From a virus: a DNA stretch of 64,000 bases. Below, in pieces: positions 35,933 through 54,810 of this stretch. Location: positions 1 to 64,000 of the IMG/VR virus record IMGVR_UViG_3300020120_000133; one strand, written 5' to 3'. Within the stretch, counting starts at the first letter, position 1. Each line of letters opens with the position of its first letter. A program made the translations under genes and the position numbers. The notes under the pieces are model-generated. The model saw only the letters and a program-made list of their open reading frames with translations. It made no database searches and was not told the origin of the DNA.

Positions 35933-35940
35933 ATTGATCC

Positions 35941-36132: not shown

Positions 36133-36298
36133 GATTACATCCTCCGTGCGAGCATCCGTGCAAAGAGATGTGAAATGGCATCGACGGACCAGCGCTGGGA
36201 CACTGGTCCGCGATGCCGCCGTAGCGCTTATTCGGGCGTCAACCGATACGTGGAGTCGTCGCCGTGGTCGCCCGAAATCTGAAATCCTTTGTGTTTCA

Positions 36299-36850: not shown

Positions 36851-36851
36851 T

Positions 36852-37094
36852 TCATCCTGTGGTGCCTGTTTCGTGCCGAACAAGCCTTTGCCGAGATCGA
36901 GACCAGATAGGCGCGCGATCCAATGCCGCCTCTTCCATCCGGGCCACGAGGACCGCCGCTGCGTAGGCTTCCCGCTCGCAGTAACAAAGGGTTCGTGCCC
37001 GGTGCCCGAGGAACTCCAGCGCCCGATGAACGCCCCTATCGAGCATTCCGGCTCCGCTGCACAAACTGATGATGGGGATGGAATGTGAATCCAC
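36852..37094 (-). pseudogene. N-terminal fragment of a C5-cytosine DNA methyltransferase (motifs I-II only)
   Basis: IISLCSGAGMLDRGVHRAL...CYCEREAYAAAVLVARMEEAALDRAPIW is a typical Dcm N-terminus. It breaks off before the PCQ motif, and a stop follows 16 codons later. Confidence 0.55.
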
Positions 37095-37124
37095 ACGGCA
37101 ATTTCCACAGAACCAGCGCCGAGC

Positions 37125-38372
37125 CTACGCCGTCGCCTCAGCCGCCGCCTTCGCCTTGAATGCGAACCCGCCGGACTTCAATTTCTGGAACACCGCGACC
37201 TGATCCTTGCGGCTCAGTTTCATCCACGGCTTCGTCAGCATCAGGTTCAGCTGCTGCTTGATGTCGGCTTCGTTCAACCCGAGTTCATCGGACACCGCGA
37301 ACTCCGAAGCGAAATTACAAATCCAGTCCCAAGTGCAGGGGTCCGGCATCTCGATCGCCGACGGCTCCTGCTGTTCCGGCTTCTTCTCCGGTTCCTTCTC
37401 CGGCTCCTGTTGCTGCTGGGGTGGCGCGCCCTGCGTCTCTGCGGCACTGGACGTCGCCGTCTCGGTCTTTGGTTCCGGCTGCTTCTGTTCGCCGGTCGTT
37501 CCGCCACTGATGGTTCCCGACACTGGCGGGGTCTTGAAGCCGAAAGCGGTCTTGCCGTCGGTCGGCTGCGGCGGCCCTTCCTGTTTCGGGGGGAACTCGG
37601 CGTCGATCGTGGTCTCTTCGTCCCTGATGGCGTTGAAGACGCCGCGCAGTTTCAGCAGGTCGTCGCCGTCGATGTCTTCGATCCGACCGTTCGGCTTGTC
37701 GAGATATTCAAGCAACTGTTCGACGGAGACGTGCATCTTCCCGAATGCCGAGATCGCGTCGGCGAGGCGCTGCCCGTGGGTCTTGGCTTCCCCGACCGCT
37801 GTTTTCTTGGCGCTGCGCCAGACCTCATCGATCACGATCTTCGGAACGACCGAATTGAGCGCATTGCGCCGCGCGATCGCCGATGCCGCGTTCGTCGTCG
37901 TCATGATCATGTCGTCGCCGTATCGGTAGCCGTCGCGGGTCGTGATCCGCCGCCGGATGTCCACCGAACACGACACGTTGGTTTCGAGGTCGTGACAGAC
38001 CCCCTGAGTCGTCACGAACTTCTCGTCCTCGCCGATCACCCTGGACCCCCAGCGAAGATTGCCCCAGCACGATGCCACGATCTCGGCGCATCGGATCGAC
38101 GGGCCTTCGATGAACTTGATCTTGCCGTCCTTCTCCTTGCGCTTCAGCGTGTAGAAGCAACTCTGCGCGGTTTCCTGATTCCGCGTCGCCATCGCGACGG
38201 CGTTGTCGGTGCTTTTCGCGATTGAACGCGGATAGCGCTTCGCTGTCGATATCTGCAAATCGACCTCGGCCTTGATGATGGCCTGTGCGGAAACCTGATC
38301 TTCATTCGGGAAGATCGGCTCGGCCTGTCGCGGCAACTCCGTCGGTCGTCCTCTATTGTCTGATCCGCTCAT
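37125..38372 (-). CDS. Putative recombination (ssDNA-annealing-like) protein with a Pro/Glu-rich linker
   Basis: ATGA-coupled to the upstream exonuclease gene. Conserved-looking core (GPSIRCAEIVASCWGNL...NAASAIARRNALNSVVP). Function inferred mainly from position. Confidence 0.35.
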   Translation of the reverse strand: MSGSDNRGRPTELPRQAEPIFPNEDQVSAQAIIKAEVDLQISTAKRYPRSIAKSTDNAVAMATRNQETAQSCFYTLKRKEKDGKIKFIEGPSIRCAEIVASCWGNLRWGSRVIGEDEKFVTTQGVCHDLETNVSCSVDIRRRITTRDGYRYGDDMIMTTTNAASAIARRNALNSVVPKIVIDEVWRSAKKTAVGEAKTHGQRLADAISAFGKMHVSVEQLLEYLDKPNGRIEDIDGDDLLKLRGVFNAIRDEETTIDAEFPPKQEGPPQPTDGKTAFGFKTPPVSGTISGGTTGEQKQPEPKTETATSSAAETQGAPPQQQQEPEKEPEKKPEQQEPSAIEMPDPCTWDWICNFASEFAVSDELGLNEADIKQQLNLMLTKPWMKLSRKDQVAVFQKLKSGGFAFKAKAAAEATA

Positions 38373-39478
38373 GATTTCGATCCCTTCTCGGTTGATGGTG
38401 CTTTGAACGTGATTCTTTTCTCGGTGGTGCGCTCGATGGCCCCGACGGCGTCGAGTCGATTGACCAGTTCCTGTTTCGCTTTCCCCTTGCCCCGAGGCGG
38501 CGCCTGTGCGGCCACCGCATCCATGAGGTCCGGCAACGACAACTTCATGGCCCCGGCGATCTCCGCATCACTCAGCATCGGTGCGAGAACCGGCCATGCC
38601 AGCAGCGGCAGGACCTTGCGTTTCTCCGATTCGCTGAACTCGACGCTGCCGCCATCCGGCAACGCCTGCTTGCCGCCGTTGGCTTCGATGAATGCCTTGT
38701 GCTGTCGGCGAAAGTCCTCGCAAGCCTTCTCGACGCAGCGAAGCCCGGTGTAGATGTCGCGAAGTTTGGGGGCGATCGCGGGGAAATCGACGTCGCCCAA
38801 GCCCGTGAGATCGTTGATGCTCTGCCGCACCAGTTGGTGCCGGGCCGGACAGTTGGCAGCGCGGGGACAAAAATCACATCCTTCATTGATCCGATACGCC
38901 GCCGTCTCCCGCGTCCGCGCCGCCGTGACCAGCTTCTCTTTGAAGTCGCGCAATTCCGCGACGCCGCCGCTGCGCGTGTCGTTGATCCGGTCCCGCAGCC
39001 ACGACAGCGTCACCGACCATCTCGGCTTCTCGAAAACCGTCGTCGAGAGAAGCGCGTAAGCCAGAAGCTGCGCGTAATAGTCGCGGTGCCGGCGGCCGGA
39101 CTTGTAATCATCGACGGCGACGTGGTTATCGCCGACCTGCAATTTGTCGAGCGTCCCGGTCAACTCGACATCGTGGGCCAGTTGGATCGCGAACGATTGT
39201 TCCAAGAGTGGTTTCGGGAATGAGTCGCGCATCGCATCGCTGGCCTGCCGCGCGAACGCCAGCATGAAGCCGAGTTCATCGACATCATCGACGCCGTACT
39301 TCTGCGCCAACTCGACGGCGCGGGGAATCTCGCCGTCGCGCTCGTAGATCATGACCCCTTCGTGCGCCGCCGAACCAAGCCGCGATTCCTGGCGGTCGTT
39401 GTCGATGCGCAGGCCCGGCTCTTGACTGCGCGGGCACAGTATCAACAAGGGGGCGGAACTACAGCGGATGGAGATCAT
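38369..39478 (-). CDS. PD-(D/E)xK exonuclease, Cas4/DUF2800-like, with a Cys cluster
   Basis: CSSAPLLILCPRS at the N-terminus, DKLQVGDNHVAVDDYKSG, QLLAYAL, and C-terminal CDFCPRAANC. Start at ATG 39478 behind GGGAGG. Confidence 0.65.
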   Translation of the reverse strand: MISIRCSSAPLLILCPRSQEPGLRIDNDRQESRLGSAAHEGVMIYERDGEIPRAVELAQKYGVDDVDELGFMLAFARQASDAMRDSFPKPLLEQSFAIQLAHDVELTGTLDKLQVGDNHVAVDDYKSGRRHRDYYAQLLAYALLSTTVFEKPRWSVTLSWLRDRINDTRSGGVAELRDFKEKLVTAARTRETAAYRINEGCDFCPRAANCPARHQLVRQSINDLTGLGDVDFPAIAPKLRDIYTGLRCVEKACEDFRRQHKAFIEANGGKQALPDGGSVEFSESEKRKVLPLLAWPVLAPMLSDAEIAGAMKLSLPDLMDAVAAQAPPRGKGKAKQELVNRLDAVGAIERTTEKRITFKAPSTEKGSKS

Positions 39479-39651
39479 GGAAGCAGCCTCCCTTGCGACG
39501 CCAAAAACCAGAGCATCGACATGCCCCCGAGAACGTAAAAGGCCGCCCCAATGGCGATCAGCACAATCCGCCTCAAGACCGGCAACTCGGTAGTCAGCAA
39601 AGCCACCGCGAGACCGAGAAGGCCAGAGATAATGCCAAGAAGAAAGGTCAT
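39475..39651 (-). CDS. Small membrane protein (58 aa)
   Basis: MTFLLGIISGLLGLAVALL...IAIGAAFYVLGG. ATGA overlaps on both sides. Confidence 0.4.
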   Translation of the reverse strand: MTFLLGIISGLLGLAVALLTTELPVLRRIVLIAIGAAFYVLGGMSMLWFLASQGRLLP

Positions 39652-39839
39652 CGCGCCAGCTTCCTTCCGAGAAATTGCCACTGCGCCGACGAAGCCAGCA
39701 GGATGTCACAGATTAAGGTTCCGGCTCCCGATGCGACGAAGCCCCACCGAAGCGCGAAATGCAGCCACGCCATGCAGAGCGCGTAGTAGCCGCCGATCCA
39801 AATGAGCGCGAAGATCGTAAAGGCGCGGGAGGGTTTCAT
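39648..39839 (-). CDS. Small membrane protein (63 aa)
   Basis: MKPSRAFTIFALIWIGGYYALCMAWLHF... ATGA overlaps on both sides. Confidence 0.4.
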   Translation of the reverse strand: MKPSRAFTIFALIWIGGYYALCMAWLHFALRWGFVASGAGTLICDILLASSAQWQFLGRKLAR

Positions 39840-40549
39840 TTCCAGCCCCTTTCCGCAGCGACTGGACAATCCGGCCAATGCCAAGATCGCGATGCTTCCG
39901 CCATATCGAGCGCAATCCAGCGGCCGTCCTGTGTTCGCGCCCAATCCAGCGACCAGGCGCCTTCGAAGGATCGGGAAACCTTTTCGGATAGTTGGGTTAA
40001 CAGCGCGATCTCGCCGTCGTCCTGCTGATTGAGTTCGGCGAGAAGTTCGCGCCAGTTCGCGACCGACGGTCTCGCGTAAGCAGGTTCCAGACAACCGACC
40101 GGCCAATAGGGATGGCGGCAGAGGACGTTCCCATTCTCGATGAAATAACGGCGCTCTTTGGTCACCGGCATTCCACGGAACGCGGTGAAGCGATGCTCAA
40201 GCGGAATGAATTTGCGGACGGCCCACGCTGAAGTAGGCAGATCGGCGCACCCGCTTTCGTCGATGAGAGTGCAGATATGCCGTGGAATGCCGACGCCGGA
40301 TTCGAGAAAACAAGTCTGGTTCCATTGGTGTTTGGCGCTGAGATGCCCGGTGCGAATGAAGCAGGGGTATCCGACGCGGTCGATCGCGGCCGAAATCTGC
40401 GCGAGGAAGTCATCCCAGCCGTCCGGCTTCCTGCCGTCGAGAACGACCGTGACATCGGCATCGGTTTTGATGATCTCAGTGGGCGGCGTCTCCACGCCTG
40501 TTGATTGCAGGATCGGATACCAATAGCTGATGCAATTTCCGTCGATCAT
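39836..40549 (-). CDS. ATP-grasp-like phage protein
   Basis: FIRTGHLSAKHQW...VRKFIP...FRGMPVTKERRYFIENG...WSLDWARTQDGRWIALDMAEA matches a phage family usually annotated ATP-grasp, as I recall it. ATGA start at 40549. Confidence 0.45.
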   Translation of the reverse strand: MIDGNCISYWYPILQSTGVETPPTEIIKTDADVTVVLDGRKPDGWDDFLAQISAAIDRVGYPCFIRTGHLSAKHQWNQTCFLESGVGIPRHICTLIDESGCADLPTSAWAVRKFIPLEHRFTAFRGMPVTKERRYFIENGNVLCRHPYWPVGCLEPAYARPSVANWRELLAELNQQDDGEIALLTQLSEKVSRSFEGAWSLDWARTQDGRWIALDMAEASRSWHWPDCPVAAERGWK

Positions 40550-40884
40550 TTCGCACCCTTCGGATTCGCGATTTCCAGCAGAATGTCGGCATGGCACGAA
40601 TCACCGGGTTTGCACCAGCAAGCCAGATTCTTCCCGCGCAGCACTCGCCGCGCAGCAAGGGCGACGGTCTGCCCAACCGGATTCACTTCCAGCCAAACCC
40701 GGAACGCATCAACCGCATCCTTCTTCGTGTCGATTGGAGTGGACCCGACGACGCTTCCTACCTTGAACGGGTTTCCCCACATGCCGCTGCTGCGATCAAC
40801 GCAGACCACGGGCAAACCGTTGGGTGATGTGAGGCGCGACCCCTTCTTTCGGCTGCGCTGAATACGAACCGGCGTCGGGTTCAT
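40546..40884 (-). CDS. DUF4326 domain protein
   Basis: WGNPFKVG...AVDAFRVWL...LRGKNLACWCKPGDSCHADILL signature. GGAGGG SD. Confidence 0.7.
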   Translation of the reverse strand: MNPTPVRIQRSRKKGSRLTSPNGLPVVCVDRSSGMWGNPFKVGSVVGSTPIDTKKDAVDAFRVWLEVNPVGQTVALAARRVLRGKNLACWCKPGDSCHADILLEIANPKGAK

Positions 40885-40974
40885 GCCGCCCTCCGCAATG
40901 TTTCAGCAATCAAATGGCCCGTTTGTTCAGTGGATGTGCGGAGAGAACCGGCTACCCACAATGCGCAATGAATA

Positions 40975-41016
40975 AGCCCGCAAATGCTGGATCGACCAAG
41001 CATCTGCGGGCTTTTC
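40975..41016 (+). promoter_or_regulatory. Strong hairpin followed by a T-run, in the divergent region upstream of the integrase
   Basis: AGCCCGCAAATGCT-ggatcgacca-AGCATCTGCGGGCT then TTTC. No plus-strand gene lies upstream for it to terminate. Confidence 0.35.
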
Positions 41017-41147
41017 GTCCTATCCGACGCGGGGTAGGACGCTTCATTTTTCAACCCCGTAGGCGCCGGTGTCACCAAACCGTCACAGACATCCGCTCCG
41101 ACAGCAGTTACGTTTCCAAGATACCCGACCCGCAAGGAAAAACCGCA

Positions 41148-42398
41148 ATGCGACGACGACAGACGGCGTTCCCGCAATGGTGGAACGATCTCCACATCCC
41201 CGACCGCCTCCGCGAACAGGTCCGCGCCACCTTCACGATCAACCGCGACGGCTACGTGATCTGGTACAACGGCAGGACGCGAACCGTCTGCGGCAAGACC
41301 GTCGCGCCCGCCGATGTGCAAGACCGCTGGCTGAAGAAGAAAGAGGCCATCGACGCCGGCGCCGAATACGGTCCTCCCAACATCTACCGCGATGCCCTGG
41401 CCGACTTCCTGAAGATGCAGCGTGACCGCCTCGTCGCCGCGAAGAACCGCATCGAGCATCGCACCTACCACAACTACGAGGTCGCCCTGAACGATTTCGG
41501 CAACTTCGTCTTCGAGCATCGCAAGGTCGCGGATACACCACTGGCCGAACTCGGACCCCGCGTCTTCGCCGCCTATGCCTCGAAGTTCAACGGCTGGAAG
41601 GCCAGCGGTTTCGACTCCATCGTCTGCCGCGTCGGCGCGCTGTTCCGGTGGTGTGTCGAGATGGAATACCTCGATCGCTATCGCCCCGGCCCTCAATTCG
41701 TCAGACCGGCGAAACAGGAAATCGTTGACCAGCGCATCGACCTGACCAAGAGTTTCGAGGCCCAGGAGATCGCGGACCTCTATGTCGCGGCCAACCAAAC
41801 GGTGCGCTGCTGGATCGCGCTGGGACTCTGCGCCGGCTTCAACAACTCCGACATCGCGCACCTGCCCCGCGCCGTCGTCGATCTCGAATCCGGCATCATC
41901 GACTTCCGGCGCCGCAAGTCCGGCAAGAAGCGCCGCGTCATCCCGCTGCCAGCCGATCTCGTCGATCTGCTGAAGCGATACCAGCGACCCGACCCCACCG
42001 ACGCCGTTCACGCTGGCCTGTTCTTCGTCTCCGAATACGGCAATCCCTACGGCCGCACCCGAAGCCGAAACGGCGACTACATGCCGAGCGACAGCGTCAG
42101 CCGCCTGTTTGGCCGGCTGATGGATGACGCCAAAGTCGAGCGCCGCCGGGGCCGCAACTTCTCCGGCCTGCGGACGACGCTGTTCAACTGGTGGCCGCGC
42201 GGTCAATGGGATCTGGAACGCAAGATCGTCATGGGACGCGCCACCGGCACCGTCGATCTCGACAGCTATCTTGAGGATGTCGGACTGGAACGTATCGGTC
42301 ATGGCGTCAACGAAGTGTGGGGTCGGGTCAAGCCGCTGATCGAGTCGGCGACGATCAATCTTCCGACTCATCCTCTTCCTCTTCGCCCTCTTCCTTGA
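41148..42398 (+). CDS. Tyrosine-recombinase-family integrase with apparently non-canonical catalytic residues
   Basis: Integrase-like layout (SAM-like N-domain, FRRRKSGKKRRVIPL, FSGLRTT, MGRATG...DSYL). Start at ATG 41148 behind AAGGAAAAA. Confidence 0.65.
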   Translation: MRRRQTAFPQWWNDLHIPDRLREQVRATFTINRDGYVIWYNGRTRTVCGKTVAPADVQDRWLKKKEAIDAGAEYGPPNIYRDALADFLKMQRDRLVAAKNRIEHRTYHNYEVALNDFGNFVFEHRKVADTPLAELGPRVFAAYASKFNGWKASGFDSIVCRVGALFRWCVEMEYLDRYRPGPQFVRPAKQEIVDQRIDLTKSFEAQEIADLYVAANQTVRCWIALGLCAGFNNSDIAHLPRAVVDLESGIIDFRRRKSGKKRRVIPLPADLVDLLKRYQRPDPTDAVHAGLFFVSEYGNPYGRTRSRNGDYMPSDSVSRLFGRLMDDAKVERRRGRNFSGLRTTLFNWWPRGQWDLERKIVMGRATGTVDLDSYLEDVGLERIGHGVNEVWGRVKPLIESATINLPTHPLPLRPLP

Positions 42399-42675
42399 CG
42401 ACGACCTTCGTCCTGCCTTCGAAAATCTCGACGATGGTGCCATCGTGCTTGAACTTGCTGATGCTCTTGCCGCGCATCAGGCCCACCAGCTTCTCCCGGG
42501 CGCTATCGACCTTCTCCTTGGCCGTCGAAAGCACTTCGTCGCGTTCGCGCTTCGCTTTCGAATATCGCTTGGCGGCGCGGAAAAGTTCCTTGTCCTGCGC
42601 ATTGTCCATATCAAGCTCAGGGAAAAGGGCACGATCCTCGTTCTCAGTCGTCGTATCTGTTTCGGTCTCCGGCAT
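42355..42675 (-). CDS. Hypothetical acidic protein (106 aa)
   Basis: ORF-track ORF behind AAAGGA. Its 3' end overlaps the convergent integrase by 44 nt. Confidence 0.45.
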   Translation of the reverse strand: MPETETDTTTENEDRALFPELDMDNAQDKELFRAAKRYSKAKRERDEVLSTAKEKVDSAREKLVGLMRGKSISKFKHDGTIVEIFEGRTKVVVKEEGEEEEDESED

Positions 42676-42705
42676 TGCTTCAATCCTTTGCTGGTGATCC
42701 CAGCG

Positions 42706-42963
42706 TTAGCACCTGACCCCCGTATAGTCTCTGGCTTCGATCGGCCGCGCCGCTCCGTGCGGCATCGGCACTTTCTGATTCAGCACGATCCTGGCGGCAT
42801 CCGACATCTTCACCTTGATAAACGGCCTCCGCGCCGAGCCGGCGAAATGGACCGCGATCCCGTGGGCAATGGCGAGACGACGAAATCGTTCTCGACTGAT
42901 GCCGAGCCGCTTGGCCGCCTCGTGCGCCCAGACCAGATCCGAGATGTCCGCATCGGCTGGCAT
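42706..42963 (-). CDS. Excisionase/AlpA-like HTH protein
   Basis: LVWAHEAAKRLGISRERFRRLAIAHGI. ATG directly follows the upstream stop. Near the integrase. Confidence 0.5.
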   Translation of the reverse strand: MPADADISDLVWAHEAAKRLGISRERFRRLAIAHGIAVHFAGSARRPFIKVKMSDAARIVLNQKVPMPHGAARPIEARDYTGVRC

Positions 42964-43311
42964 TCACACCGCCTCCAAGATCGACAGGACGTGCAAGGTC
43001 GCGTCCAACGACGGCTTCTTCGACGTCACCATCCGCCGCAGCGCCTTGATCGCTTCCTCGATCGCGATCCTCTCCCTCGATTCCATCATTTCGATCCCCC
43101 TCGCCTTATGTGGCACCACCTGGAGATATCGCTTCGTCGCCAGCGCGCACACATGCTCGAAGACCGAGACCTTCGAGATTCCGATCGTCTCGGACAACTC
43201 CACGTAGGTCGGCGACATCCCGGTGCCGCGCTGGAAGCGCCGAATCTCGTTCAGCACTTCCTGCTGTCGCGGTGTCAAGGAGTCGGGAGTATTGATCGTC
43301 GATGATCGCAT
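42964..43311 (-). CDS. LexA DNA-binding-domain protein without the S24 peptidase domain
   Basis: LTPRQQEVLNEIRRFQRGTGMSPTYVELSETIGISKVSVFEHVCALATKRYL...ARGIEM parallels the LexA N-terminal wHTH. The protein is only 115 aa. Confidence 0.65.
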   Translation of the reverse strand: MRSSTINTPDSLTPRQQEVLNEIRRFQRGTGMSPTYVELSETIGISKVSVFEHVCALATKRYLQVVPHKARGIEMMESRERIAIEEAIKALRRMVTSKKPSLDATLHVLSILEAV

Positions 43312-43319
43312 GTGGCGGA

Positions 43320-44069
43320 TTATGAAATATGTGGTTTGGCGATTTCGAGGCAGCGCGCGACCTTGTCGAGATCGAACCTGGAATCGTCGGATGATCGCAC
43401 CCGCGTCTCCATATCGATCCAGATCGGGGTCTCACCAGCCGCCGCGCCGATCAGCGGAATCTGCTGTTCGAGATTATCGGGGCCGAGACCGCCAGCGTAG
43501 CCGTGATAGCAACAGGTCGTGTCGTCGTCCATGTACTGCGGCTTCGGCCATTCAGTCGGCAAAATTCCGGCACCACCCGAGATATCGAATAGTGGGACGG
43601 CATCGACGGTCTGATCTCCGTTGTTCTCGCCGTAGAGCGATTCGAGATGCGCGTTCCCCTTGGCCCCGTCGATTTGGAAGATGTATTGGCGCTTGCCGAG
43701 CGAAAGCATCGCATTGAAGAATTCCGGGGCCTTACATGGCGTGCGCTCGGCGTGAAAGTTCAGTTGGATTCTCTGAAACTCCGGGGCCAACAACAATTCC
43801 GGAATATGTACGTCACCGACCAGCAATTCCCGAACCCATCGCCCGCAGAGATGCAGCGAAAGCGAAATGTTGCCGACCCGCCTCGCGACTCCGATCAATT
43901 CAGCGATCCAAGGCGCGGATGGAAATCGGAAACTGCCGGCATCGGGGCCGACGCTGGCAGAGGCCAGAATGCCCCACTCGACGAACCTGTATTGCCGCGA
44001 CAGCTTCAGCAGGTCATTCGGGATAATGCTGTCGTCGGCGCCCGTGATTGTCACTCTGTCCAGTCGCAT
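43320..44069 (-). CDS. TrpF-like (phosphoribosylanthranilate-isomerase-like) TIM-barrel protein
   Basis: VEWGIL, SLHLCG, RIQLNF, LFDISGGAGILP..WP and GYAGGLGPDNL resemble the PRAI phosphate-binding elements. Start taken at ATG 44069. Confidence 0.5.
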   Translation of the reverse strand: MRLDRVTITGADDSIIPNDLLKLSRQYRFVEWGILASASVGPDAGSFRFPSAPWIAELIGVARRVGNISLSLHLCGRWVRELLVGDVHIPELLLAPEFQRIQLNFHAERTPCKAPEFFNAMLSLGKRQYIFQIDGAKGNAHLESLYGENNGDQTVDAVPLFDISGGAGILPTEWPKPQYMDDDTTCCYHGYAGGLGPDNLEQQIPLIGAAAGETPIWIDMETRVRSSDDSRFDLDKVARCLEIAKPHIS

Positions 44070-44136
44070 GATCGTTTCCAATCCGATAAATGTGGGCCGA
44101 ATCGGTGGGTGAGCGATCCGGCCCCGTGGAGGGGGA

Positions 44137-44325
44137 CTAAGTTGATTTGGTTGATGCCCGGTTCTTGCGCTCGATCGCGTCGAACACTTCCTTGCGGTGG
44201 ACTTGGACGTCATTCGGCGCCCGGATTCCGACGCGAACGTTGCCGCCCTTGATCCCGAAGATCATGACCTCAACGTTCTTCCCGATCATGATGGACTCAT
44301 CTACCGCTCTGCGGACAACAAGCAT
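44137..44325 (-). CDS. csrA: Carbon storage regulator CsrA homologue
   Basis: MLVVRRAVDESIMIGKNVEVMIFGIKGGNVRVGIRAPNDVQVHRKEVFDAI aligns along its full length with E. coli CsrA ([48 protein letters not shown]). Confidence 0.9.
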   Translation of the reverse strand: MLVVRRAVDESIMIGKNVEVMIFGIKGGNVRVGIRAPNDVQVHRKEVFDAIERKNRASTKST

Positions 44326-44344
44326 TTTCGACTCCGTTCGTTTT

Positions 44345-44809
44345 TTAGGCGATCACAGTTTTCTTTCGGCGATGCTGACGTCCGAAGCGGATGATCTCCG
44401 ATTCGAATCGCGCGACCTTGACCCCGTAAAGTGGTGCCAGCATCGCCGCCTCATCCAATCGCGGGCACTTCTTTCCGGCCTCGTAGTTCTTGACCGTGGA
44501 TTCGCTTTTCCCGATGCGTTTGGCCATTTTTCGGCAACTCAGGCCCAACGCCTTCCGCGATTTCCTGAAGAGGTTCGGTTTCGGACCACCAACCAACCCT
44601 GGAAGATTCCCATTCCGCTCGACTTCTGGCCGAATTATGCCTGCCCGGATCAGCTTCGCCGGATGGATGCGCCAGATCAGGCCGAGGCGAGACAAAAGCA
44701 CTTGCAGCATCTTCGTTTTGCATCGGCCCTCCGATTGCGCGAATCGGCCGAGACAATCATCGAGTTCTTGGCTGAGGTTCACGCCGAATCTGACGGGTTT
44801 CGTGTTCAC
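44345..44809 (-). CDS. RHH (CopG-like) plus XRE-HTH fusion regulator
   Basis: N-terminal VRFGVNLSQELDDCLGRFA..., C-terminal LGLSCRKMAKRIGKSESTVKNYEAG. Confidence 0.6.
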   Translation of the reverse strand: MNTKPVRFGVNLSQELDDCLGRFAQSEGRCKTKMLQVLLSRLGLIWRIHPAKLIRAGIIRPEVERNGNLPGLVGGPKPNLFRKSRKALGLSCRKMAKRIGKSESTVKNYEAGKKCPRLDEAAMLAPLYGVKVARFESEIIRFGRQHRRKKTVIA

Positions 44810-45096
44810 GCCGCTTTCGCCCTAGCCTTCCTCGCGGACTCCAGTATCGCTCGCTCAATCGCCTCAAAGCTGCATTCGTAGGCCGATGCCATCGAGTCAA
44901 CGGCGTCGAGCGGCGGTATCGATCTGCCGGACTCTCGGTTTTGAAGCGCCGTCTCCGTGATGCCGAGACGATCCGCCATTTGTCTTTGGGTCATCCCGAG
45001 TTCTGCGCGACGAGACTTCCAGAAGTTCTCGGTTCCCCTTGGCCTTCTGGTTTTACCAATCCGAGTTCGATTGCTCTCTCTGGATTTTCTCGCCAT
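44806..45096 (-). CDS. XRE-family HTH protein (HTH half of a split RHH-XRE paralogue)
   Basis: LGMTQRQMADRLGITETALQNRESG. Overlaps 44991..45230 in another frame. Confidence 0.55.
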   Translation of the reverse strand: MARKSRESNRTRIGKTRRPRGTENFWKSRRAELGMTQRQMADRLGITETALQNRESGRSIPPLDAVDSMASAYECSFEAIERAILESARKARAKAA

Positions 45097-45230
45097 ATTC
45101 GCACCACACGGGCCATGACAGTCTCAATCAGATTTGTCTTCGATCGCCGCTCGATGGCACCAAGTTCACGAGTCGCTTTATTGACCTCGTAAGAAAAAGA
45201 AACTCCGAAGCGCCTTCGGTCACTTGCCAT
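44991..45230 (-). CDS. RHH-like protein (RHH half of a split RHH-XRE paralogue)
   Basis: RRFGVSFSYEVNKATRELG...RVVRIWRENPERAIELGLVKPE parallels residues 6-75 of the 44345..44809 product. Confidence 0.5.
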   Translation of the reverse strand: MASDRRRFGVSFSYEVNKATRELGAIERRSKTNLIETVMARVVRIWRENPERAIELGLVKPEGQGEPRTSGSLVAQNSG

Positions 45231-45354
45231 CTTTAAGTGACTTTATCGCCAACTAGGCACCACTTAAAGGGGAAAATCCCAAGTTGGACTTGTCTATGTC
45301 ATGGTCGGTGCTGTAAGTCTTAGGGTGGCAAGTAACTTAACGCGGGAAGAAAAA
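45231..45354. promoter_or_regulatory. Divergent promoter/operator region (genetic-switch candidate)
   Basis: AT-richer 124 bp between divergent regulator genes. Palindromes AAGTGACTT (45235-45243), CAAGTTGGACTTG (45280-45292) and AAGTAACTT (45330-45338). A 9-bp inverted repeat CTTTAAGTG/CACTTAAAG at 45231-45239 and 45261-45269. Confidence 0.5.
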
Positions 45355-45813
45355 ATGAATAAAGGTGTCGAAATCGATGTGAACAAGCTGGCGCGAATCC
45401 TAGACGACCGGCTGATGACGCATCAGGCGCTGGCTGTCGGCATCCATTCGAATCGGGAGACGGTGAGCCGGATTCTTGGCGGCAGCAGGCCCTCCCGCGC
45501 CGTCCTGTCCAGGATCATCGCGTTCCTCGGCATCAAGAAAGAAGCCCTTCTCAGCACCGATGTCGTGGACATCTCGATCCCGCGCGAGACCTACGACGGC
45601 TTGGTGCATCTGATGAAGTCTGATGAGACCCCGGCGAAGACGGTTCAGGAATATCTTCGGCAGCACGTCGCCAAAGAGGCGATCCGCGTCAGACACGCCG
45701 AAACCGGGAGTTCCGGGAAATCATCGGCATCTCGTACTCGCGCGCCTGATCCAAGGCGCGATGGTAGGTCGCCATCGTCGCGGCGACAGAAACCAAGATC
45801 ATTCCGGCCTTGA
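45355..45813 (+). CDS. XRE-family HTH regulator (Cro-like position)
   Basis: ATG 45355 behind GGGAAG. LMTHQALAVGIHSNRETVSRIL. The last ~40 codons are low-complexity, so the real functional C-terminus is unclear. Confidence 0.55.
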   Translation: MNKGVEIDVNKLARILDDRLMTHQALAVGIHSNRETVSRILGGSRPSRAVLSRIIAFLGIKKEALLSTDVVDISIPRETYDGLVHLMKSDETPAKTVQEYLRQHVAKEAIRVRHAETGSSGKSSASRTRAPDPRRDGRSPSSRRQKPRSFRP

Positions 45814-45967
45814 GGTCGATATCACAGCCGACGTCGAGAATCGCGAGCGGCACCATGAAGACGATCCACTTGCGCAGCCCAACGACGATGTCCCAACGTT
45901 CCAGGAATTCTTTCGGTGCCGTCATTCCGACCCCTTCCAACGTGACCGAACGGGAGGCTAACGCCAT
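45689..45967 (-). CDS. Possible small two-TM protein
   Basis: WIVFMVPLAILDVG and GMILVSVAATMATY are hydrophobic segments. It conflicts with the tails of both plus-strand neighbours. Confidence 0.25.
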   Translation of the reverse strand: MALASRSVTLEGVGMTAPKEFLERWDIVVGLRKWIVFMVPLAILDVGCDIDLKAGMILVSVAATMATYHRALDQAREYEMPMISRNSRFRRV

Positions 45968-47690
45968 CCGCGCGAGAGTTCAAGAGAATTGCCATTTGCC
46001 CGAGCCGATTGGATTGCGTCCCCAATTCGGAGCGGCGGAATCTAAGGGAAAGACTGACCCGGTCGCAAGCACAAAATTAAGAAAATGGGGAAGGCGGGAA
46101 ATTCAGGTCGTCGCGGTCGCGCTGATCTCGCTCGTCGTGATCTTGCCACGATCCATTTCGATCGTTCGATCCCACTCGCCCTGTACCGACGATTTCTACC
46201 ATATCGAGCGTGGCGCGCTGTTCTGGTCACGACATCTGGGGTCAACGGATCTGAACGATCCACCGCTCGGCGAGGCCATCGGGGCGATCCCGGTTTCGGC
46301 ATCGGACTGGCTGTTGCTGCTGCCGCGATTCCGCAAGTTTGTGCTGTCGCGAGATCAGGCCCAACTCATCGTCGCGATCTGGAAATCGATCATCTTCGCC
46401 CCCTTGGTCGCGATCGTCTTTTGCTGGCTTCGCGGGTTGTACGGCGTCGGTGCCGGATGGTTCTGTGCCGCGCTGATCGTCTTCGATCCCAACGTCACGG
46501 CGCATCTTCATCTCGGCGCCATCGACATGCTCGGGGCCGAGGTCGCCGTTGTGGCGCTCTACGCGGTGTCGCGATGTCTGGACCGGCCGACGACGATCCG
46601 GCTGCTGCTGGCTTCCACTGCCATCGCGGCTGCGGTTCTGACGAAGCACACGAACATCTTGGTGCCGGTCGTCGCGGTCGGGTATGGGGCGATGCGTCGC
46701 GTTCCCTTCGCGGTCATCGTGAAGTTGCTGGCGCCGATCCCGGTGCTGATGTGGGCGCTGCTATTGTTCGACGTCTCGGTCCCGACGGTGCCGCGAGATT
46801 GGCGCGAAGCTGGCTGGGCGGCGCCGACACTGTTGCGGCATCGCGTCCCCTGCGGCCTCTACATCGGTTCGTTGTGGCAGGCGCGCTCCCATGTCGCCAG
46901 CGGGCATCCCGGTTTCCTCAACGGCGAGATCCGCGACAACGGCTGGTGGTTCTACTACTTCGCGGTCGCGGCGTACAAAGTGCCGGTCGCGACGCTGCTG
47001 TTGATCGGGGTCGCGGCGCCTTCGTTCCTGTGGAAGCCGATGGGGCGCGCCGAGTTAGAGTTGATCCTGCCGGCGATCGTGTTCGCGGCCGCGCTGTCGA
47101 TGTCACCGATCAACATCGGGTTCCGGCATTTTCTGCCGGCGTATCTGTTCGTCCTGATGCTGTCGGCGCGGATCATTGCGATCATTGGAATCCCCGGCGC
47201 CGTGAAGGCGATGGCCTGGATCGGTCTCGCCGCCGGCGCGGTCCATGCCGCCAGTTTCCATCCCGACTATCTCGGCTACATCAACTGGCCGCGCGACAAG
47301 GTTTGGTTGCGCATCGGCGACAGCAATCTGGACTGGGGACAGTCGCTCAAAGAGGTCAAGGCTTGGCTGGAAGCGCATCCGCAGAACCGGCCCGTCTCCG
47401 TCGGCGCGTTCTACGGCGGCGAACCGACGCAGCGGGAGGTCCGCAGATATATCGGCAAATCGGTCGATGCCCGGCTGATCTGGGATCCGCCGCCCCAGCG
47501 CGGCTTGCTGATCGCGTCGCCGACGTGGGTTGCGGGAATCTACGGGTTCGGAGATCGCTATGCCGAGTTCAGGTCGCGCGATCCCGACGCCGTGATCGGT
47601 CGCTGCATGTTGGTCTACGATTTGGATCGGATCAGAGAAGAATCGAGTCCAGCCCACACGCAATCGTCATCCCCGATTTCCCAACCCTGA
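45888..47690 (+). CDS. GT-C fold glycosyltransferase (GT39/ArnT/PMT-like), polytopic membrane protein
   Basis: More than 10 hydrophobic segments. First-loop DDFYH...LNDPPLGEAIGAIPV resembles the ArnT/PMT family. The start is uncertain (ATG 45888 or TTG 46014). The track start at 45810 is a TTG. Confidence 0.65.
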   Translation: MSQRSRNSFGAVIPTPSNVTEREANAIRARVQENCHLPEPIGLRPQFGAAESKGKTDPVASTKLRKWGRREIQVVAVALISLVVILPRSISIVRSHSPCTDDFYHIERGALFWSRHLGSTDLNDPPLGEAIGAIPVSASDWLLLLPRFRKFVLSRDQAQLIVAIWKSIIFAPLVAIVFCWLRGLYGVGAGWFCAALIVFDPNVTAHLHLGAIDMLGAEVAVVALYAVSRCLDRPTTIRLLLASTAIAAAVLTKHTNILVPVVAVGYGAMRRVPFAVIVKLLAPIPVLMWALLLFDVSVPTVPRDWREAGWAAPTLLRHRVPCGLYIGSLWQARSHVASGHPGFLNGEIRDNGWWFYYFAVAAYKVPVATLLLIGVAAPSFLWKPMGRAELELILPAIVFAAALSMSPINIGFRHFLPAYLFVLMLSARIIAIIGIPGAVKAMAWIGLAAGAVHAASFHPDYLGYINWPRDKVWLRIGDSNLDWGQSLKEVKAWLEAHPQNRPVSVGAFYGGEPTQREVRRYIGKSVDARLIWDPPPQRGLLIASPTWVAGIYGFGDRYAEFRSRDPDAVIGRCMLVYDLDRIREESSPAHTQSSSPISQP

Positions 47691-47895
47691 TGGTCACTTC
47701 CCGGTCGTGCCACGCCGAGGGGAAACGGTCGCTGCGCAGCCGCCATATTTCTCGTTCGACCGATGGGATTTTGCTTCTGGAAGCCAGAAAGATATCGGCG
47801 GTGTATTCAAGCTCGTGAAGCAGCGCCCCGACCGCCTGTTTCGAGACCGTCGCCCGAACCGTCGCGCCCGTTTTTACGGCACCCATCAACCGCAT
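47632..47895 (-). CDS. Candidate 87-aa ORF overlapping the 3' ends of the BCS1-like and GT39-like genes
   Basis: Starts at the ATG of GCGTCTGATG, the same stop/start box used at 21497 and 53429. By hand count its third-position GC is higher than that of either overlapping frame. The overlapping tails of the BCS1-like and GT39-like ORFs look like junk. Confidence 0.3.
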   Translation of the reverse strand: MRLMGAVKTGATVRATVSKQAVGALLHELEYTADIFLASRSKIPSVEREIWRLRSDRFPSAWHDREVTIRVGKSGMTIACGLDSILL

Positions 47896-49042
47896 CAGAC
47901 GCTTCGCGCATCGACAGCAGCCGTTCTTGGATCGCCGCCATGCTGCGCCCGGCCATTTCCTTCGCGAATCCAGCGGCGTCGCCGTTGACCCCCGCGCCCA
48001 TGAATCTTCGGTACATCGCGGCTGCTTGTTCCTCTGTGGCATCGTCGATCAGCAGGTGGACGTCGGCGCGTCCCGGTCGGACCAGTGCGCCGTCCAGCTT
48101 GTCGCGATGGTTCGTCGTCATCATGAGGATTTGGCCCTCCTTAGCGACGACGCCGTCGATGGCGTTGAGTAAGCCGCTGAAGGTGAGGTCGTGATTGCTG
48201 TCGCGCCCCTTCCATGCGGCATCGACATCTTCGATGAGAAGGACGCTGTTCGATGGAGTCCGAATCAGGCATTCGATGAGATCGTTGTCGCTCTTGAAAC
48301 TCGACAGGCTCAGGACGCACAGATTCCTTCCCAACTCACTCGCCATCGCGTGCGCCAGCGAACTCTTGCCGTTTCCCGGCGGTCCATGAAGCAGGTAGCC
48401 GCGACGCCACGGGATGCCACGGTCGAAGTACCATGCCTTCGATCCGATAAACCGAACGGCGTCCGCGATCAGCGCCTCGGCCTTCCCGCCGGGCAGCACA
48501 ACCGAGGCGACGCGGCGGATCGGCTTACGATCAGCCAACTGCCAGTTCGGCCCCGACGGCACCCACACTTCCACGACCGAACCATTCTTGAACTTCGCGA
48601 ATCGATAGGCTTCTTCAAGCAGTTCCTCGAATATTTTCTTGTCGCGCCCGAGGCATTGCAGCGTGATCAATTCACGGTAGCCGTTCTGCATCTGCAGTTC
48701 TTTTCTCTCGACCCAAACGACGATGCGGCGGCCCCGGAAGCGCAGCCAGCAGAAACTGATCGGGAACAGTGAGAAGTCCGGTTTCACCGGGCCAGTTCCG
48801 GGACCATCAGGAAAGACCGCGTTGATCCCCATCCATCGGGATTTCGAATTCGCGGCCAGCCATTGCTTCACCCACGCGAACGCGCAGTCGCTGTTGTCGA
48901 TTTCCGCCGTCAACAGCAGCCGATTCTTGATCCAGCGGAGGATCGCTTTCGGCGCATCTCGACACGCGGCGGCGCACCAACCAGCGGCGACGACCGCGAG
49001 GCCACCGGAGAAGAAGGGGTTGTGGAGAAGTTCCGAGATCAT
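47807..49042 (-). CDS. BCS1-like AAA+ ATPase with an N-terminal membrane anchor
   Basis: GYLLHGPPGNGKSS (Walker A), VLLIEDVD (Walker B), MTTNHRDKLDGALVRPGRADV. Hydrophobic N-terminus. ATGA overlap with the PDF stop. Confidence 0.8.
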   Translation of the reverse strand: MISELLHNPFFSGGLAVVAAGWCAAACRDAPKAILRWIKNRLLLTAEIDNSDCAFAWVKQWLAANSKSRWMGINAVFPDGPGTGPVKPDFSLFPISFCWLRFRGRRIVVWVERKELQMQNGYRELITLQCLGRDKKIFEELLEEAYRFAKFKNGSVVEVWVPSGPNWQLADRKPIRRVASVVLPGGKAEALIADAVRFIGSKAWYFDRGIPWRRGYLLHGPPGNGKSSLAHAMASELGRNLCVLSLSSFKSDNDLIECLIRTPSNSVLLIEDVDAAWKGRDSNHDLTFSGLLNAIDGVVAKEGQILMMTTNHRDKLDGALVRPGRADVHLLIDDATEEQAAAMYRRFMGAGVNGDAAGFAKEMAGRSMAAIQERLLSMREASDAVDGCRKNGRDGSGDGLETGGRGAASRA

Positions 49043-49635
49043 TTGATGCCGACGGCGCGTTGCAGTTCCCAAGCCTCGCCGACGCGACAAATTCCGGAAA
49101 GATGGTCGATCTCATGCTGGACCACTCGCGCGGACCAAGCGACGAAGGTGAGTTGCGTCAGCATCCAATCGAGGCCGCGATATTGCACCGTGATCCGATT
49201 GAACCGCTCGACGTTGGCGCGGACGCCGGGGAACGACAAGCAGCCCTCGACGGAAACGTTGGTCTCGGCGCTGTGATCGATGATCTCGGGGTTGAGCATG
49301 AATAAGCCGTTCGTCCGGTTCGGTGCCACGAAGACGGCGCGGCGCAGCCAATCGATTTGATTCCCCGACAGCCCGACGCCGCCAGCCGAATACTCACAAG
49401 CCGTCCGCAGCAGCCGCAGCTTGGCGACATCCCTTAAATCTTCTTCGGTGAACTCCGCAGCCACGGCTTTCAGGGACGGATGCCCGAACTTCACGATCTT
49501 CGTTGTCGCGGCACCGCAGCATCCTTTGGCTTTGGTGCCGCTGCCGCAGGGACACGGCGAATTTCTGTCATACCCGCGAAATAACTGCACCGGACGATCT
49601 AACGGCAGGATTGCAGATTTTTGATCGGTGTTCAT
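49039..49635 (-). CDS. def: Peptide deformylase with an N-terminal SEC-C metal-binding motif
   Basis: GVGLSGNQI, EGCLSFPG and QHEIDHL are the three PDF motifs. CPCGSGTKAKGCCG is a SEC-C motif. The ATG overlaps the T-frame stop (TGATG), with AGAGGA upstream. Confidence 0.8.
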   Translation of the reverse strand: MNTDQKSAILPLDRPVQLFRGYDRNSPCPCGSGTKAKGCCGAATTKIVKFGHPSLKAVAAEFTEEDLRDVAKLRLLRTACEYSAGGVGLSGNQIDWLRRAVFVAPNRTNGLFMLNPEIIDHSAETNVSVEGCLSFPGVRANVERFNRITVQYRGLDWMLTQLTFVAWSARVVQHEIDHLSGICRVGEAWELQRAVGIK

Positions 49636-50569
49636 CACATCCTCTTGGACTCCCGCTTCGCCTTCTCGATCGCGGCGGCGCGGCGCTTATCCTCGATCGC
49701 CGCGCGCTTCTGCGTCGCGACCCGATCGAGTAACCACATCAACTCCAACGTCTCCCAGCGCTGCAGTTCCGACATCACGTTCAGCCGGCAATGCTGATCC
49801 AGAATCGCGACGGCCTGTTCCATCTGAAGCGTCCCGAAAAGGCTCGCCGATTCTCCGCTTCTGAGGTCCGACGCCGCCAGCCGGTACAGTTTGACCGCCG
49901 TGAAGTTCGCCGGGTGCAGGCCGAACGTCGCGGGATACAGCAGATATTTCGGACATCGTCGGCATGGCGGATCGCGCCTCGGAACGATCGCTTTGTGCGC
50001 GGTGATGCAGCTTTTGCAGTTCCCGGTGACGCTCTCGGACGTGTTGAAGACCGGGTTCAGGCCGAACTCGTAGCCGGCCCAGTCGATGAGTTTTTTACGC
50101 GGGTCTCCCAATCGGCGGCTTGGAAGCGGCCGATGTCCTGACAGATCGTCCAAACGAAGTTGCTAAACGGCTTGCAGTGATCGAGGACGAAAAGGATGTT
50201 CTCTCTCGCCTCGCTCGACTTCCCGGAAACCGACGGGTCCATCGGAACCTCGGCGTCCATGCCGCCGCATTTCGCGACTTCGTCGGCATCCAGCGGCACC
50301 ATTGATCGCAGTTTCGCGAACGTCACCTTCTCACAACGAATCACGGCTTGCAGGCAAACTTCCTGCACGACGGCGAGTTGGAACGCGGCCGGGGACTCTT
50401 CGCCCTCGCGACGCCCGCGCAATTTGATGAGGTCCTGGACCTCGCGCATCGCGTCGGGTCCGAGAAACTGCAGCCAGACCTTAAACCCAGTGGTGTCGTC
50501 GGCGTTCTCTGGATACCAGAACAGTCGCGTCAGGGCGCCGGCTTTCGGCTTCATGTTGCTGAGGTTCAT
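49635..50569 (-). CDS. Tail assembly chaperone GT fusion made by a -1 programmed frameshift
   Basis: The T frame (49635..50153) has no plausible own start and overlaps the end of G by 97 nt. The slippery A_AAA_AAC is in the correct phase. Located directly downstream of the tail tube gene. Confidence 0.65.
50057..50569 (-). CDS. Tail assembly chaperone G (170 aa)
   Basis: AAAGGAA SD. Position after the tail tube gene. C-terminal ...DWETRVKNSS contains the slip site. Confidence 0.65.
   Translation of the reverse strand: MNLSNMKPKAGALTRLFWYPENADDTTGFKVWLQFLGPDAMREVQDLIKLRGRREGEESPAAFQLAVVQEVCLQAVIRCEKVTFAKLRSMVPLDADEVAKCGGMDAEVPMDPSVSGKSSEARENILFVLDHCKPFSNFVWTICQDIGRFQAADWETRVKNSSTGPATSSA
50090..50096 (-). 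promoter_or_regulatory. Slippery heptamer A_AAA_AAC (-1 ribosomal frameshift site)
   Basis: G frame reads GTA AAA AAC. The -1 frame continues AAA AAA CTC ATC GAC, giving KKLID..., which is exactly the T-frame ORF. Confidence 0.65.
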
Positions 50570-50618
50570 AGTGACGTTCCTTTACCACAAAGCCCCCCAT
50601 CTCGTTTCGCCTCAGGCG

Positions 50619-50648
50619 CAAAAAACCGCCCGGCAACGCACCGGGCGG
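50619..50648 (-). terminator. Rho-independent terminator/attenuator after the tail tube gene
   Basis: Minus strand CCGCCCGG-tgcgttg-CCGGGCGG followed by TTTTTTG. Confidence 0.7.
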
Positions 50649-50676
50649 ACCAAAGGAGTGAAGGGGGACTGAAGGT

Positions 50677-51690: not shown

Positions 51691-51751
51691 CTGCTGATCT
51701 CCTGTGGAGGTCACAGACGCCTTTGGCGGGTTGGCTGGCCGTGCGGGAGGC

Positions 51752-54800: not shown

Positions 54801-54810
54801 ATTCTCCACC

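Follow-up and report, generated by a model that had tools for sequence, protein, structure and literature searches.

The 64,000-nucleotide stretch of viral DNA analysed here (positions 1 to 64,000 of the IMG/VR record IMGVR_UViG_3300020120_000133; hereafter the window) encodes a small CsrA-family RNA-binding protein, and its capsid and tail-tube genes share leader sequences that contain the triplet GGA. The question raised by this locus is which messages the phage CsrA acts on. A preliminary description of this DNA had proposed that a prophage CsrA keeps the late capsid and tail-tube mRNAs silent through the shared leaders, or that it rewires the Csr control of the host. Our preferred answer, to which we assign a probability of about 60%, is that CsrA retunes the translation of host or early phage messages and that the shared leaders are cassettes made of a late-gene start motif and a Shine–Dalgarno (SD) sequence. 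The protein would bind GGA at or near the ribosome-binding sites (RBSs) of host mRNAs, or Csr-type small RNAs (sRNAs), possibly also early phage mRNAs, and its binding would retune host physiology or the lysis–lysogeny decision. The coordinates of the features mentioned are presented in Table 1.

CsrA protein

Based on the profiles and alignments used, the csrA open reading frame (ORF) is a canonical CsrA with its RNA-contact residues largely intact, in agreement with the full-length homologue reported before. The product scores 72.5 bits against Pfam PF02599 (cut-off 27; profile positions 1–52 of 53), lies above the equivalog cut-offs of NCBIfam (NF002469, 78.6 vs 73; TIGR00202, 70.2 vs 70.1) and reaches 63 bits against PHROG 9500 ('CsrA-like regulator'). 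Over residues 1–55 it aligns without gaps to 1Y00, 2BTI, 1VPZ and 2JPP (E = 2e-13 to 4e-12); the identity to E. coli CsrA (PDB 1Y00) over this region is ~44% by hand count. In solved CsrA structures, chains of ~55–75 residues with five β strands and a C-terminal helix make up an intertwined homodimer. Concerning the residues which we take to be the RNA contacts of E. coli CsrA (L2, L4, R6 and R7 in β1; V40, V42, R44 and I47 in β5 and the helix), the phage protein is identical at L2, R6, V40, V42 and R44, as well as at H43. Of the remaining contacts, L4 and I47 have both become V, a conservative change, and R7 has become A, with an additional R at position 5.

A HMMER search of 1.84 billion representatives returned 13,430 matches, with at most 59% identity for single-domain proteins, and a word-index homologue search returned 3. 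In this 1.84-billion-protein library, the top-scoring relatives are single-chain tandem fusions, ~120–180 amino acids long, in which a CsrA-like stretch occurs twice. There is no match to the FliW model among the ORFs scanned. No Rfam family, CsrB/RsmY/RsmZ-type RNAs included, matches in the window, and no intergenic cluster of at least four A(N)GGA sites, as in a CsrB-like decoy, is found there. Such a Csr antagonist could be encoded by the host, so its absence from the window says nothing about membership of the CsrA family.

Leaders of the capsid and tail-tube genes

Two short elements are shared by the leaders of the capsid and tail-tube genes, as the preliminary description had stated. 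ACAGGAGATC occurs exactly twice in the window, on the minus strand at 56188–56197 and 51696–51705 (0.10 copies expected; at least two copies in 0 of 100 shuffles), and each copy ends 5 nt before an ATG (56182 and 51690). GCGTCTGTGA lies ahead of each copy and is also found exactly twice, on the same strand (56206–56215 and 51711–51720); the gap between the two elements is 8 nt in the capsid leader and 5 nt in the tube leader.

ACAGGAGATC includes AGGAG, a strong SD, which is seen at the SD position in just 3 of the ~70 genes of the window (capsid, tube and the gene at 4038 on the plus strand). The window was compared with six related contigs (L001–L006), which were found via the capsid (44–62% identity) and of which 21 kb each was read. 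Among the relatives, GGAG is present in 11 of the 13 capsid or tube leaders examined, mostly as AGGAG and often with CA before it, and the other two contain CGGAG and AGAGG. The design consisting of the upstream motif and CAGGAG is shared by L004–L006.

The capsid and tube leaders of the window contain a single GGA each, located within the SD. The capsid leader folds no better than its shuffles (z = +0.8), and the hairpin of the tube leader (z = −2.9) uses CCUCC, which is missing from the capsid leader; no RNA structure common to both leaders is predicted. High-affinity CsrA targets (glgC, hag and csrA) usually have at least two GGA sites 10–60 nt apart, one over the SD and at least one in a hairpin loop (PMC4066749). 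With one GGA and no common hairpin, the two leaders do not follow this pattern. Their shared sequence is most likely a late start motif followed by a strong SD and not a CsrA signature; in general, an SD-containing leader shared by genes is no evidence for CsrA control.

The 3′ ends of the two genes are also alike. Between 47.5 and 64 kb, no terminator-like hairpin of the coding strand is stronger than the two that immediately follow the capsid (54846–54819) and tube (50648–50626) genes, and the capsid genes of L001 and L003–L006 are likewise trailed by terminator-like hairpins. With a start motif, a strong AGGAG SD and a terminator each, the two genes would form parallel high-expression, high-output cassettes for the two most abundant virion proteins.

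A late-gene start motif

Sequence comparison places GCGTCTGTGA among the copies of (G/T)CGTCTGA, a late-gene start motif of the whole lineage, which precedes at least 10 late genes in the window and 30 called gene starts in the six related contigs. In the window and L001–L006 together, 41 copies of CGTCTG are found up to 40 nt upstream of starts vs 3.15 expected (P = 4e-31). For the window alone, the interval of 7–12 nt before minus-strand starts contains 8 copies (0.11 expected, P = 7e-13), and 10 of the 11 copies of CGTCTGA are on the coding strand; the total of 11 is not above chance (11.7 expected), the signal being in strand and placement. The distance to the start codon is bimodal, 7–12 nt (n = 23, mode 8, with no SD between) or 19–33 nt (n = 17, in most cases with an SD). 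The second class includes all copies at capsid and tube genes (23 nt from the ATG for the tube gene and 26 nt for the capsid gene of the window), and the copies from the protease to the tail genes (57946, and 29517 to 17118; the listing covers 17112..57946) lie 8–11 nt before their start codons, apart from the copy at 19106, for which the distance is 43 nt.

In the relatives, at 44–62% capsid identity, GCGTCTG is kept ahead of capsid and tube genes in spacers that otherwise differ; the exception is the tube gene of L006, which has the variant CGTCTA. The motif also stands ahead of late genes devoid of any GGA, and it is missing from the genes of the csrA operon. It is located before both late blocks, namely the head and tube genes (64–50.6 kb) and the tail genes (29.5–12 kb), between which lie ~20 kb of non-structural genes (replication/recombination, integrase, regulators); a motif shared by two separated late blocks fits independent late promoters. 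In L004 (11411), L005 (11405) and L003 (11402) it stands directly after terminators and before the next ATG.

As in late promoters of the −10-only type, the motif is found before many late genes, is strand-specific and is conserved in relatives. Our best guess is a putative −10-like late promoter element. We favour a promoter or 5′-end signal because it explains both spacing classes, the copies after terminators and the co-regulation of the two late blocks. Copies ~8 nt from the ATG would give leaderless mRNAs, and those ~23 nt from the ATG would give SD-bearing leaders of ~16–20 nt for the capsid and tube genes. Since the motif is conserved at 44–62% capsid identity, it may serve as a handle for late transcription units, and possibly for leaderless translation, in uncultured phages.

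Three further observations concern the motif. An extracytoplasmic function (ECF)-like −35 element (AAC) at a fixed distance from CGTC was considered and rejected, its spacing being inconsistent; there is a weak enrichment of C at −10/−11. GCGTCTG is also present inside the prohead protease genes of L001 (9217) and L003 (9215), on the plus strand and at the same relative position, ~600 nt into the gene; in L003 an ATG follows 6 nt downstream, and the copy may mark the internal start of a nested scaffold protein. Finally, an ATG at 62336 (62336–62353, minus strand) has CGTCTGA 11 nt ahead of it and is in frame with the 409-aa ORF 61020..62249, from which a stop codon separates it; possible explanations are a frameshift, an error in sequencing and a short upstream ORF.

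The csrA operon

csrA is the third cistron of a minus-strand operon which starts at a divergent helix-turn-helix (HTH) switch and contains, in order, two paralogous XRE regulators, csrA, a 249-aa TIM-barrel protein, a protein consisting of a LexA DNA-binding domain (LexA-DBD), an excisionase-like protein and a 106-aa ORF. The 19-nt spacer with a GGAG SD before csrA indicates that the gene is operonic. The operon converges on a recombinase-like gene, which is syntenic with the integrase gene of L008, a Logan contig.

Among the labels given earlier to the neighbours, XRE and LexA-DBD (48 bits) stand, whereas the ribbon-helix-helix (RHH) fold of the regulators has no HMM support, the excisionase-like protein is below the cut-off of its family model and the resemblance of the TIM-barrel protein to TrpF is at the level of the fold only. 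The first of the tandem regulators looks like a version of the two-domain 154-aa protein that a frameshift has broken in the vicinity of a GGGG run at ~45030: ORF79 is similar to the N-terminal part of that protein, and the overlapping 96-aa XRE ORF to its C-terminal part. The frameshift may be a sequencing error, a pseudogene or programmed. The LexA-like protein of the window has no S24 self-cleavage domain, and its syntenic counterpart in L008 (11135–11692) is complete and includes Peptidase_S24. A LexA-like repressor that cannot be cleaved could leave part of the regulation insensitive to SOS.

The TIM-barrel protein has no Pfam, PHROG or NCBIfam match, and its 2,675 homologues (50–70% identity) are all unnamed. 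The AlphaFold model, built from 32 sequences, has a predicted local distance difference test score (pLDDT) of 92.4. In a Foldseek comparison with the PDB the best matches are DUF1341/aldolase-like proteins, triosephosphate isomerase and KDO8P synthase; phosphoribosylanthranilate isomerase (PRAI), the TrpF enzyme, is at rank 10 (TM ~0.55, 15% identity). The TrpF identity was rejected, because no family model matches and PRAI ranks tenth among generic TIM barrels; according to the predicted model, the protein is a TIM barrel of unspecified substrate. The family, whose loci include L007–L018, is also found in the early regions of diverse phages and in huge phages (LR756501, LR745206). A scan of GTDB found it in metagenome-assembled genomes of the candidate phyla radiation (CPR), Paludibacter and Stellaceae, which is uninformative on the host of the window.

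csrA genes in other phages

Phage-borne csrA is a known kind of gene, of which the sequence comparisons make the csrA of the window a divergent member from an unsampled lineage. Of 50,697 phage records, 86 have a csrA homologue by tblastn (38–47% identity). Most of these belong to phages of Pseudomonas and Vibrio, and the annotations given are CsrA, carbon storage regulator or 'bacteriophage control infection protein' (Bci). A survey counted 30 csrA-positive phages among 2,517 (Sobrero and Valverde, PMC7366521). Deletion of bci, a CsrA-domain gene, in the temperate Pseudomonas phage AUS531phi alters infectivity, motility, biofilm and pyocyanin (Ambroa et al., PMC7546807), and in Salmonella host CsrA reportedly raises the expression of a prophage cI (PMC12371270).

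The gene order in L008 is an HTH gene (minus strand) followed by small genes, CsrA, a DUF3799 exonuclease, a TIM-barrel homologue, a full-length LexA-like protein, AlpA/Xis and the integrase. In Providencia phage PSTCR8lys the order runs from cI through csrA and an exonuclease to the integrase, and in AUS531phi from Cro/CI through bci to PD-(D/E)XK and RecT. In all three, csrA is co-directional with, and upstream of, the exonuclease/RecT and int genes. Judged by gene order, csrA between the immunity region and xis/int recurs in other temperate phages and corresponds to the layout of a lambda pL-type early operon. L008 and PSTCR8lys display the full pL-type pattern with csrA inside it. Compared with the lambda pattern, the window has the switch, the regulators and the excisionase-like gene, but its recombinase gene is convergent and exo/bet genes are absent from the operon.

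The operon had been called a lysogeny operon. It does start at a divergent HTH switch and run toward excisionase-like and tyrosine-recombinase genes, but the pL-type layout of the csrA operons of L008, AUS531phi and PSTCR8lys leaves that label unproven. As the unit expressed in the lysogen, the divergent pair of HTH and glycosyltransferase genes is no less plausible.

Targets of CsrA and nature of the motif

The position of csrA matches an early-left, pL-type operon, which makes expression early after infection or induction likelier. The proposal that the protein rewires host Csr control has a precedent in the phenotypes of the bci deletion (PMC7546807) and is retained as a reading by analogy. 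Several points weigh against the preferred reading as a whole. An action on the host Csr regulon is suggested by analogy with other CsrA proteins of mobile elements, and we infer the timing of csrA expression, in the lysogen or in the lytic cycle, from gene order alone. The ACAGGAG of both leaders fits the loose A(N)GGA core of CsrA sites and could thus be bound. The absence of csrA from L004–L006, where none was found by phmmer in six frames, is provisional, since 21 kb of each contig was covered. Concerning the motif, its matrix contains no partner element at a fixed upstream distance, a −35 element included, and without such a partner the motif could work at the RNA level; also, no gene for a sigma factor or RNA polymerase was found among the ~60 ORFs scanned.

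The last two points lead to the best of the alternatives, which we consider possible but clearly less probable and which concerns the leaders only: CGTCTGA may be an RNA-level signal, either a processing site at which polycistronic late RNA is divided into units or a start-associated sequence that a phage or host factor reads in translation initiation. At a near-fixed distance of ~8 nt from start codons it occupies the usual place of an SD, the motif often lies in spacers of 10–20 nt or overlaps the upstream stop codon (22221, 20794), and the Start-Associated Sequences (SAS) of Cluster K mycobacteriophages are a precedent (PMC3203893). On the other hand, the role of a substitute RBS leaves the 19–33 nt class unexplained, in which mostly a real SD is present and to which all capsid and tube copies belong. 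The motif between terminators and the next ATG in the relatives fits a re-start of transcription, and no complementarity of the motif to the conserved 3′ end of 16S rRNA was found.

An action of CsrA mainly in cis, by autoregulation through its own ACGGAG leader and by control of the downstream TIM-barrel gene, is unlikely. The translation of E. coli csrA is autoregulated, the csrA leader of the window contains A-C-GGA-G and that of L008 has AGGAAAGGA just before the ATG. The spacer of 67 nt on the 3′ side of csrA (44070–44136) contains CGGAUCG and UCGGAUUGGAAAC, as noted in the preliminary description, but the leader of the TIM-barrel gene can hardly be called GGA-rich: its three GGA (vs ~1.2 expected from base composition, ~2.5×) are close to chance, and the first of them, in CGGAUCG, is buried in the 5′ arm of the 11-bp hairpin after the csrA stop. 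The region 44060–44140 (minus strand) folds at −27.3 kcal/mol (z = −1.85), and the terminator scan did not flag this hairpin. The small hairpin abutting the TIM-barrel ATG presents a GGA at the stem/loop junction, at the edge of the loop and overlapping a weak RBS. It is the sole CsrA-site-like geometry near csrA, and it is not conserved in L008. In addition, csrA and the TIM-barrel gene are three genes apart in L008, the TIM-barrel leaders have no common sequence, and no csrA accompanies the TIM-barrel gene in L007 and L009.

We regard as improbable that CsrA binds the SD GGA of the capsid and tube leaders and keeps these mRNAs untranslated in the lysogen or until a set time of the lytic cycle. 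The A(N)GGA-like core does overlap the SD. Also, capsid and tube are among the few late genes with a GGA SD, most others having the motif at ~8 nt and no SD, so a GGA binder would be selective for these two. Besides the window, a second member of the lineage, L001, has a CsrA-like gene: its capsid is 52% identical to that of the window, and a CsrA-like ORF is located ~10 kb downstream of the capsid gene (36 of the 99 residues of this ORF readable; an exact-pattern scan of JGI metagenome contigs for an extension of L001 past it gave no match, and a Pfam scan of the ORFs upstream of it was uninformative on a switch region). However, the single GGA of each leader cannot be told apart from that of any strong SD, no hairpin common to both leaders presents it, and what else they share is accounted for by the late motif. 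L004–L006 have kept the same leader design, with no csrA found in their 21 kb. A translational lock would moreover be redundant, as the late genes of a lysogen are normally transcriptionally silent. With GCGTCTGTGA read as the late motif and ACAGGAGATC as the SD, the claim of late-mRNA silencing was not upheld. In a related and equally doubtful version, most late genes would be SD-less and possibly leaderless, and CsrA would be a selective valve on the SD-dependent messages of the terminator-bounded capsid and tube cassettes; if true, the bulk virion proteins would be timed and dosed independently of late transcription.

That csrA is a recently captured, neutral or decaying passenger, to which the apparently frameshifted first RHH-XRE gene next to it might point, is very improbable: the reading frame is complete and undamaged, its RNA-binding residues are conserved, csrA has the same position in unrelated temperate phages, and the lack of a close donor (at most 59% identity to any of the 1.84 billion representatives) argues against recent capture.

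Phage genome and relatives

It is fair to regard the window as part of a temperate-type tailed phage genome of ~100 kb; the source record is 101 kb long and the contigs of the relatives are 62–95 kb. All 64 kb of the window are phage-like, with no host genes found, and no tRNA, sought as a clue to an att site, is present in the window. Because the entire window is phage DNA, the term prophage of the preliminary description is not established, whereas temperate-type phage is a fair one. The phage encodes an S77-type prohead protease and a T4 Gp23-type capsid protein.

The virion genes fall into two blocks on the minus strand, with ~20 kb between the head and tube genes (50677–63911) and the tail genes (12033–29503). 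This gap is occupied by the genes of a SEC-C-containing peptide deformylase and a BCS1-type AAA ATPase, by the regulatory region and by the recombinase and replication/recombination genes, all on the same strand except for the HTH–glycosyltransferase unit and the recombinase gene.

A megablast search of 42–62.3 kb against the 50,697 phage records gave no match. Searches of IMG/VR and GTDB genomes with the capsid protein and then with a capsid alignment gave pattern hits and no confirmed relative.

A second motif, CT(A/T)AC(G/A)GCCGC, is present on the plus strand at the left end of the window (310–320, 930–940, 2026–2036 and 4006–4016), less than 45 nt upstream of the plus-strand starts 347, 943 (sliding-clamp-like), 2064 and 4038. 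Its count with two mismatches is at chance level and its placement alone is suggestive; it may be a signal of a different gene class.

Table 1. Features of the window and their coordinates
Feature	Coordinates	Strand	Details
csrA, 62-aa CsrA-family RNA-binding protein	44137..44325	-	Pfam, NCBIfam, PHROG, alignment
Spacer of 19 nt, upstream RHH-XRE stop to csrA ATG	44326..44344	-	GGAG SD (ACGGAG) 7 nt before ATG
GC-rich hairpin of 11 bp just after csrA stop	44094..44124	-	Then ACAUUUAU, not a clear U-tract
Small hairpin GAUUG-GAAA-CGAUC abutting TIM-barrel ATG	44070..44083	-	
249-aa (β/α)8 TIM-barrel protein	43320..44069	-	AlphaFold2 model, Foldseek
Capsid leader	56183..56215	-	GCGTCTGTGA, 8 nt, ACAGGAGATC (AGGAG SD), 5 nt, ATG 56182
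Gp23-like major capsid gene	54875..56182	-	PF07068 69.5 bits; PHROG 138
Terminator-like hairpin right after capsid stop	54811..54846	-	10 bp, 9 GC; TCTTTATT
Tube leader	51691..51720	-	GCGTCTGTGA, 5 nt, ACAGGAGATC, 5 nt, ATG 51690
Tail-tube gene (Phage_tube_2)	50677..51690	-	PF18906 124 bits; PHROG 290
Intrinsic terminator right after tube stop	50620..50648	-	10-bp stem, TTTTTT
Motif copy, prohead protease	57946 (first base)	-	Start 57929
Motif copies, capsid and tube	56214, 51719 (first base)	-	
Motif copy, 1020-aa protein	29517	-	Start 29503
Motif copy, 553-aa protein	25952	-	Start 25938
Motif copy, 127-aa ORF	24275	-	Start 24261
Motif copies, two DUF2460-like tail proteins	22227, 20800	-	Starts 22213, 20785
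Motif copy	19106	-	43 nt before start codon
Motif copy, hub protein	18477	-	Start 18463
Motif copy, 1689-aa tail protein	17118	-	Start 17102
Divergent intergenic region, putative switch, 70 bp	45231..45300	.	Between csrA operon (-) and HTH + glycosyltransferase (+)
HTH gene and PMT_2-like membrane glycosyltransferase	45301..47690	+	
Tandem paralogous regulators, operon head	44345..45230	-	HTH_3 at 37.5 and 47.6 bits
ORF79	44991..45230	-	
96-aa XRE ORF	44806..45096	-	
154-aa XRE HTH protein	44345..44809	-	
LexA-DBD-only protein	42964..43311	-	PF01726 48 bits
Excisionase-like HTH protein	42706..42963	-	TIGR01764 23.1 bits, below cut-off 28.8
Tyrosine-recombinase-like gene, weak support, convergent	40914..42398	+	PF00589 16.3 bits (below cut-off); NCBIfam Xer-type E = 5e-5
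Head genes	50.6–64 kb		
Peptide deformylase and BCS1-type AAA ATPase	47.8–49.6 kb		
Recombinase-like gene	40.9–42.4 kb		
Methylase, RusA, DUF5131, PD-(D/E)XK nuclease	22–40 kb		
Tail genes: Phage-tail_3, phiJL001 gp84-like hub, DUF2460	12–29.5 kb		
Integrase, well supported	6.7–7.9 kb		
Sliding-clamp-like gene	0.9–1.8 kb		

Comparison with known systems

The late promoters of phage T4 consist of an 8-bp −10 element, TATAAATA, with no −35 element, and are found before many late genes. CGTCTGA resembles them as a short, strand-specific single block which recurs ahead of many structural late genes and lacks a −35 partner. It differs in its GC-rich sequence and in its frequent position ~8 nt from the ATG, which would imply leaderless mRNAs; no gp55-like sigma factor was identified, and the promoter is putative. 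The SAS of Cluster K mycobacteriophages are 13 bp long, contain an AGGAG SD, lie 3–7 bp from the start and are found at non-structural genes only (PMC3203893). Both SAS and CGTCTGA are short and asymmetric, have one orientation, lie a few nt upstream of many starts and are conserved before different genes (across subclusters in the case of SAS), with a function that is unproven for either. CGTCTGA, by contrast, is 7–8 bp long, has no SD of its own, stands before structural late genes and also occurs at a second spacing, at which the SD is a separate element.

Concerning the protein, the CsrA of the window shares with chromosomal CsrA (E. coli 1Y00; Pseudomonas RsmA/RsmE) its length, the gap-free alignment and scores above the equivalog cut-offs. 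It differs from them in being phage-borne, in L4V, R7A (with the extra R5) and I47V, and in having no CsrB/RsmY/RsmZ-type RNA or GGA cluster in the window. CsrA paralogues of other mobile elements are also known, such as CsrT on integrative and conjugative elements of Legionella and Rsm alleles on Pseudomonas plasmids (reviewed in PMC7366521). Like the CsrA of the window, these are carried by a mobile element and are thought to tune the expression of host or element to the benefit of the element; they are located in conjugation or replication modules, whereas the csrA of the window belongs to the immunity/integration operon of a phage.

The closest parallels are PHROG 9500, the RsmM-type alleles of P. 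aeruginosa phages and Bci, which are, like the protein of the window, small CsrA-domain proteins of temperate tailed phages; like the window, these phage CsrA/Rsm homologues have no dedicated Csr sRNA nearby. The phage CsrA proteins of INPHARED, however, are just 38–47% identical to that of the window, which has 62 residues and no C-terminal extension, compared with 123 for Bci. The known csrA phages are mostly those of Pseudomonas and Vibrio, whereas the host of the window is neither of these, and its ~100 kb lineage is without relatives in the phage collections (megablast, capsid). As in PSTCR8lys and AUS531phi, the gene is sited between the CI/Cro immunity region and the recombination/integration genes, and the csrA of the window thus strengthens the pattern of temperate-phage csrA genes lying within an immunity-to-integrase operon.

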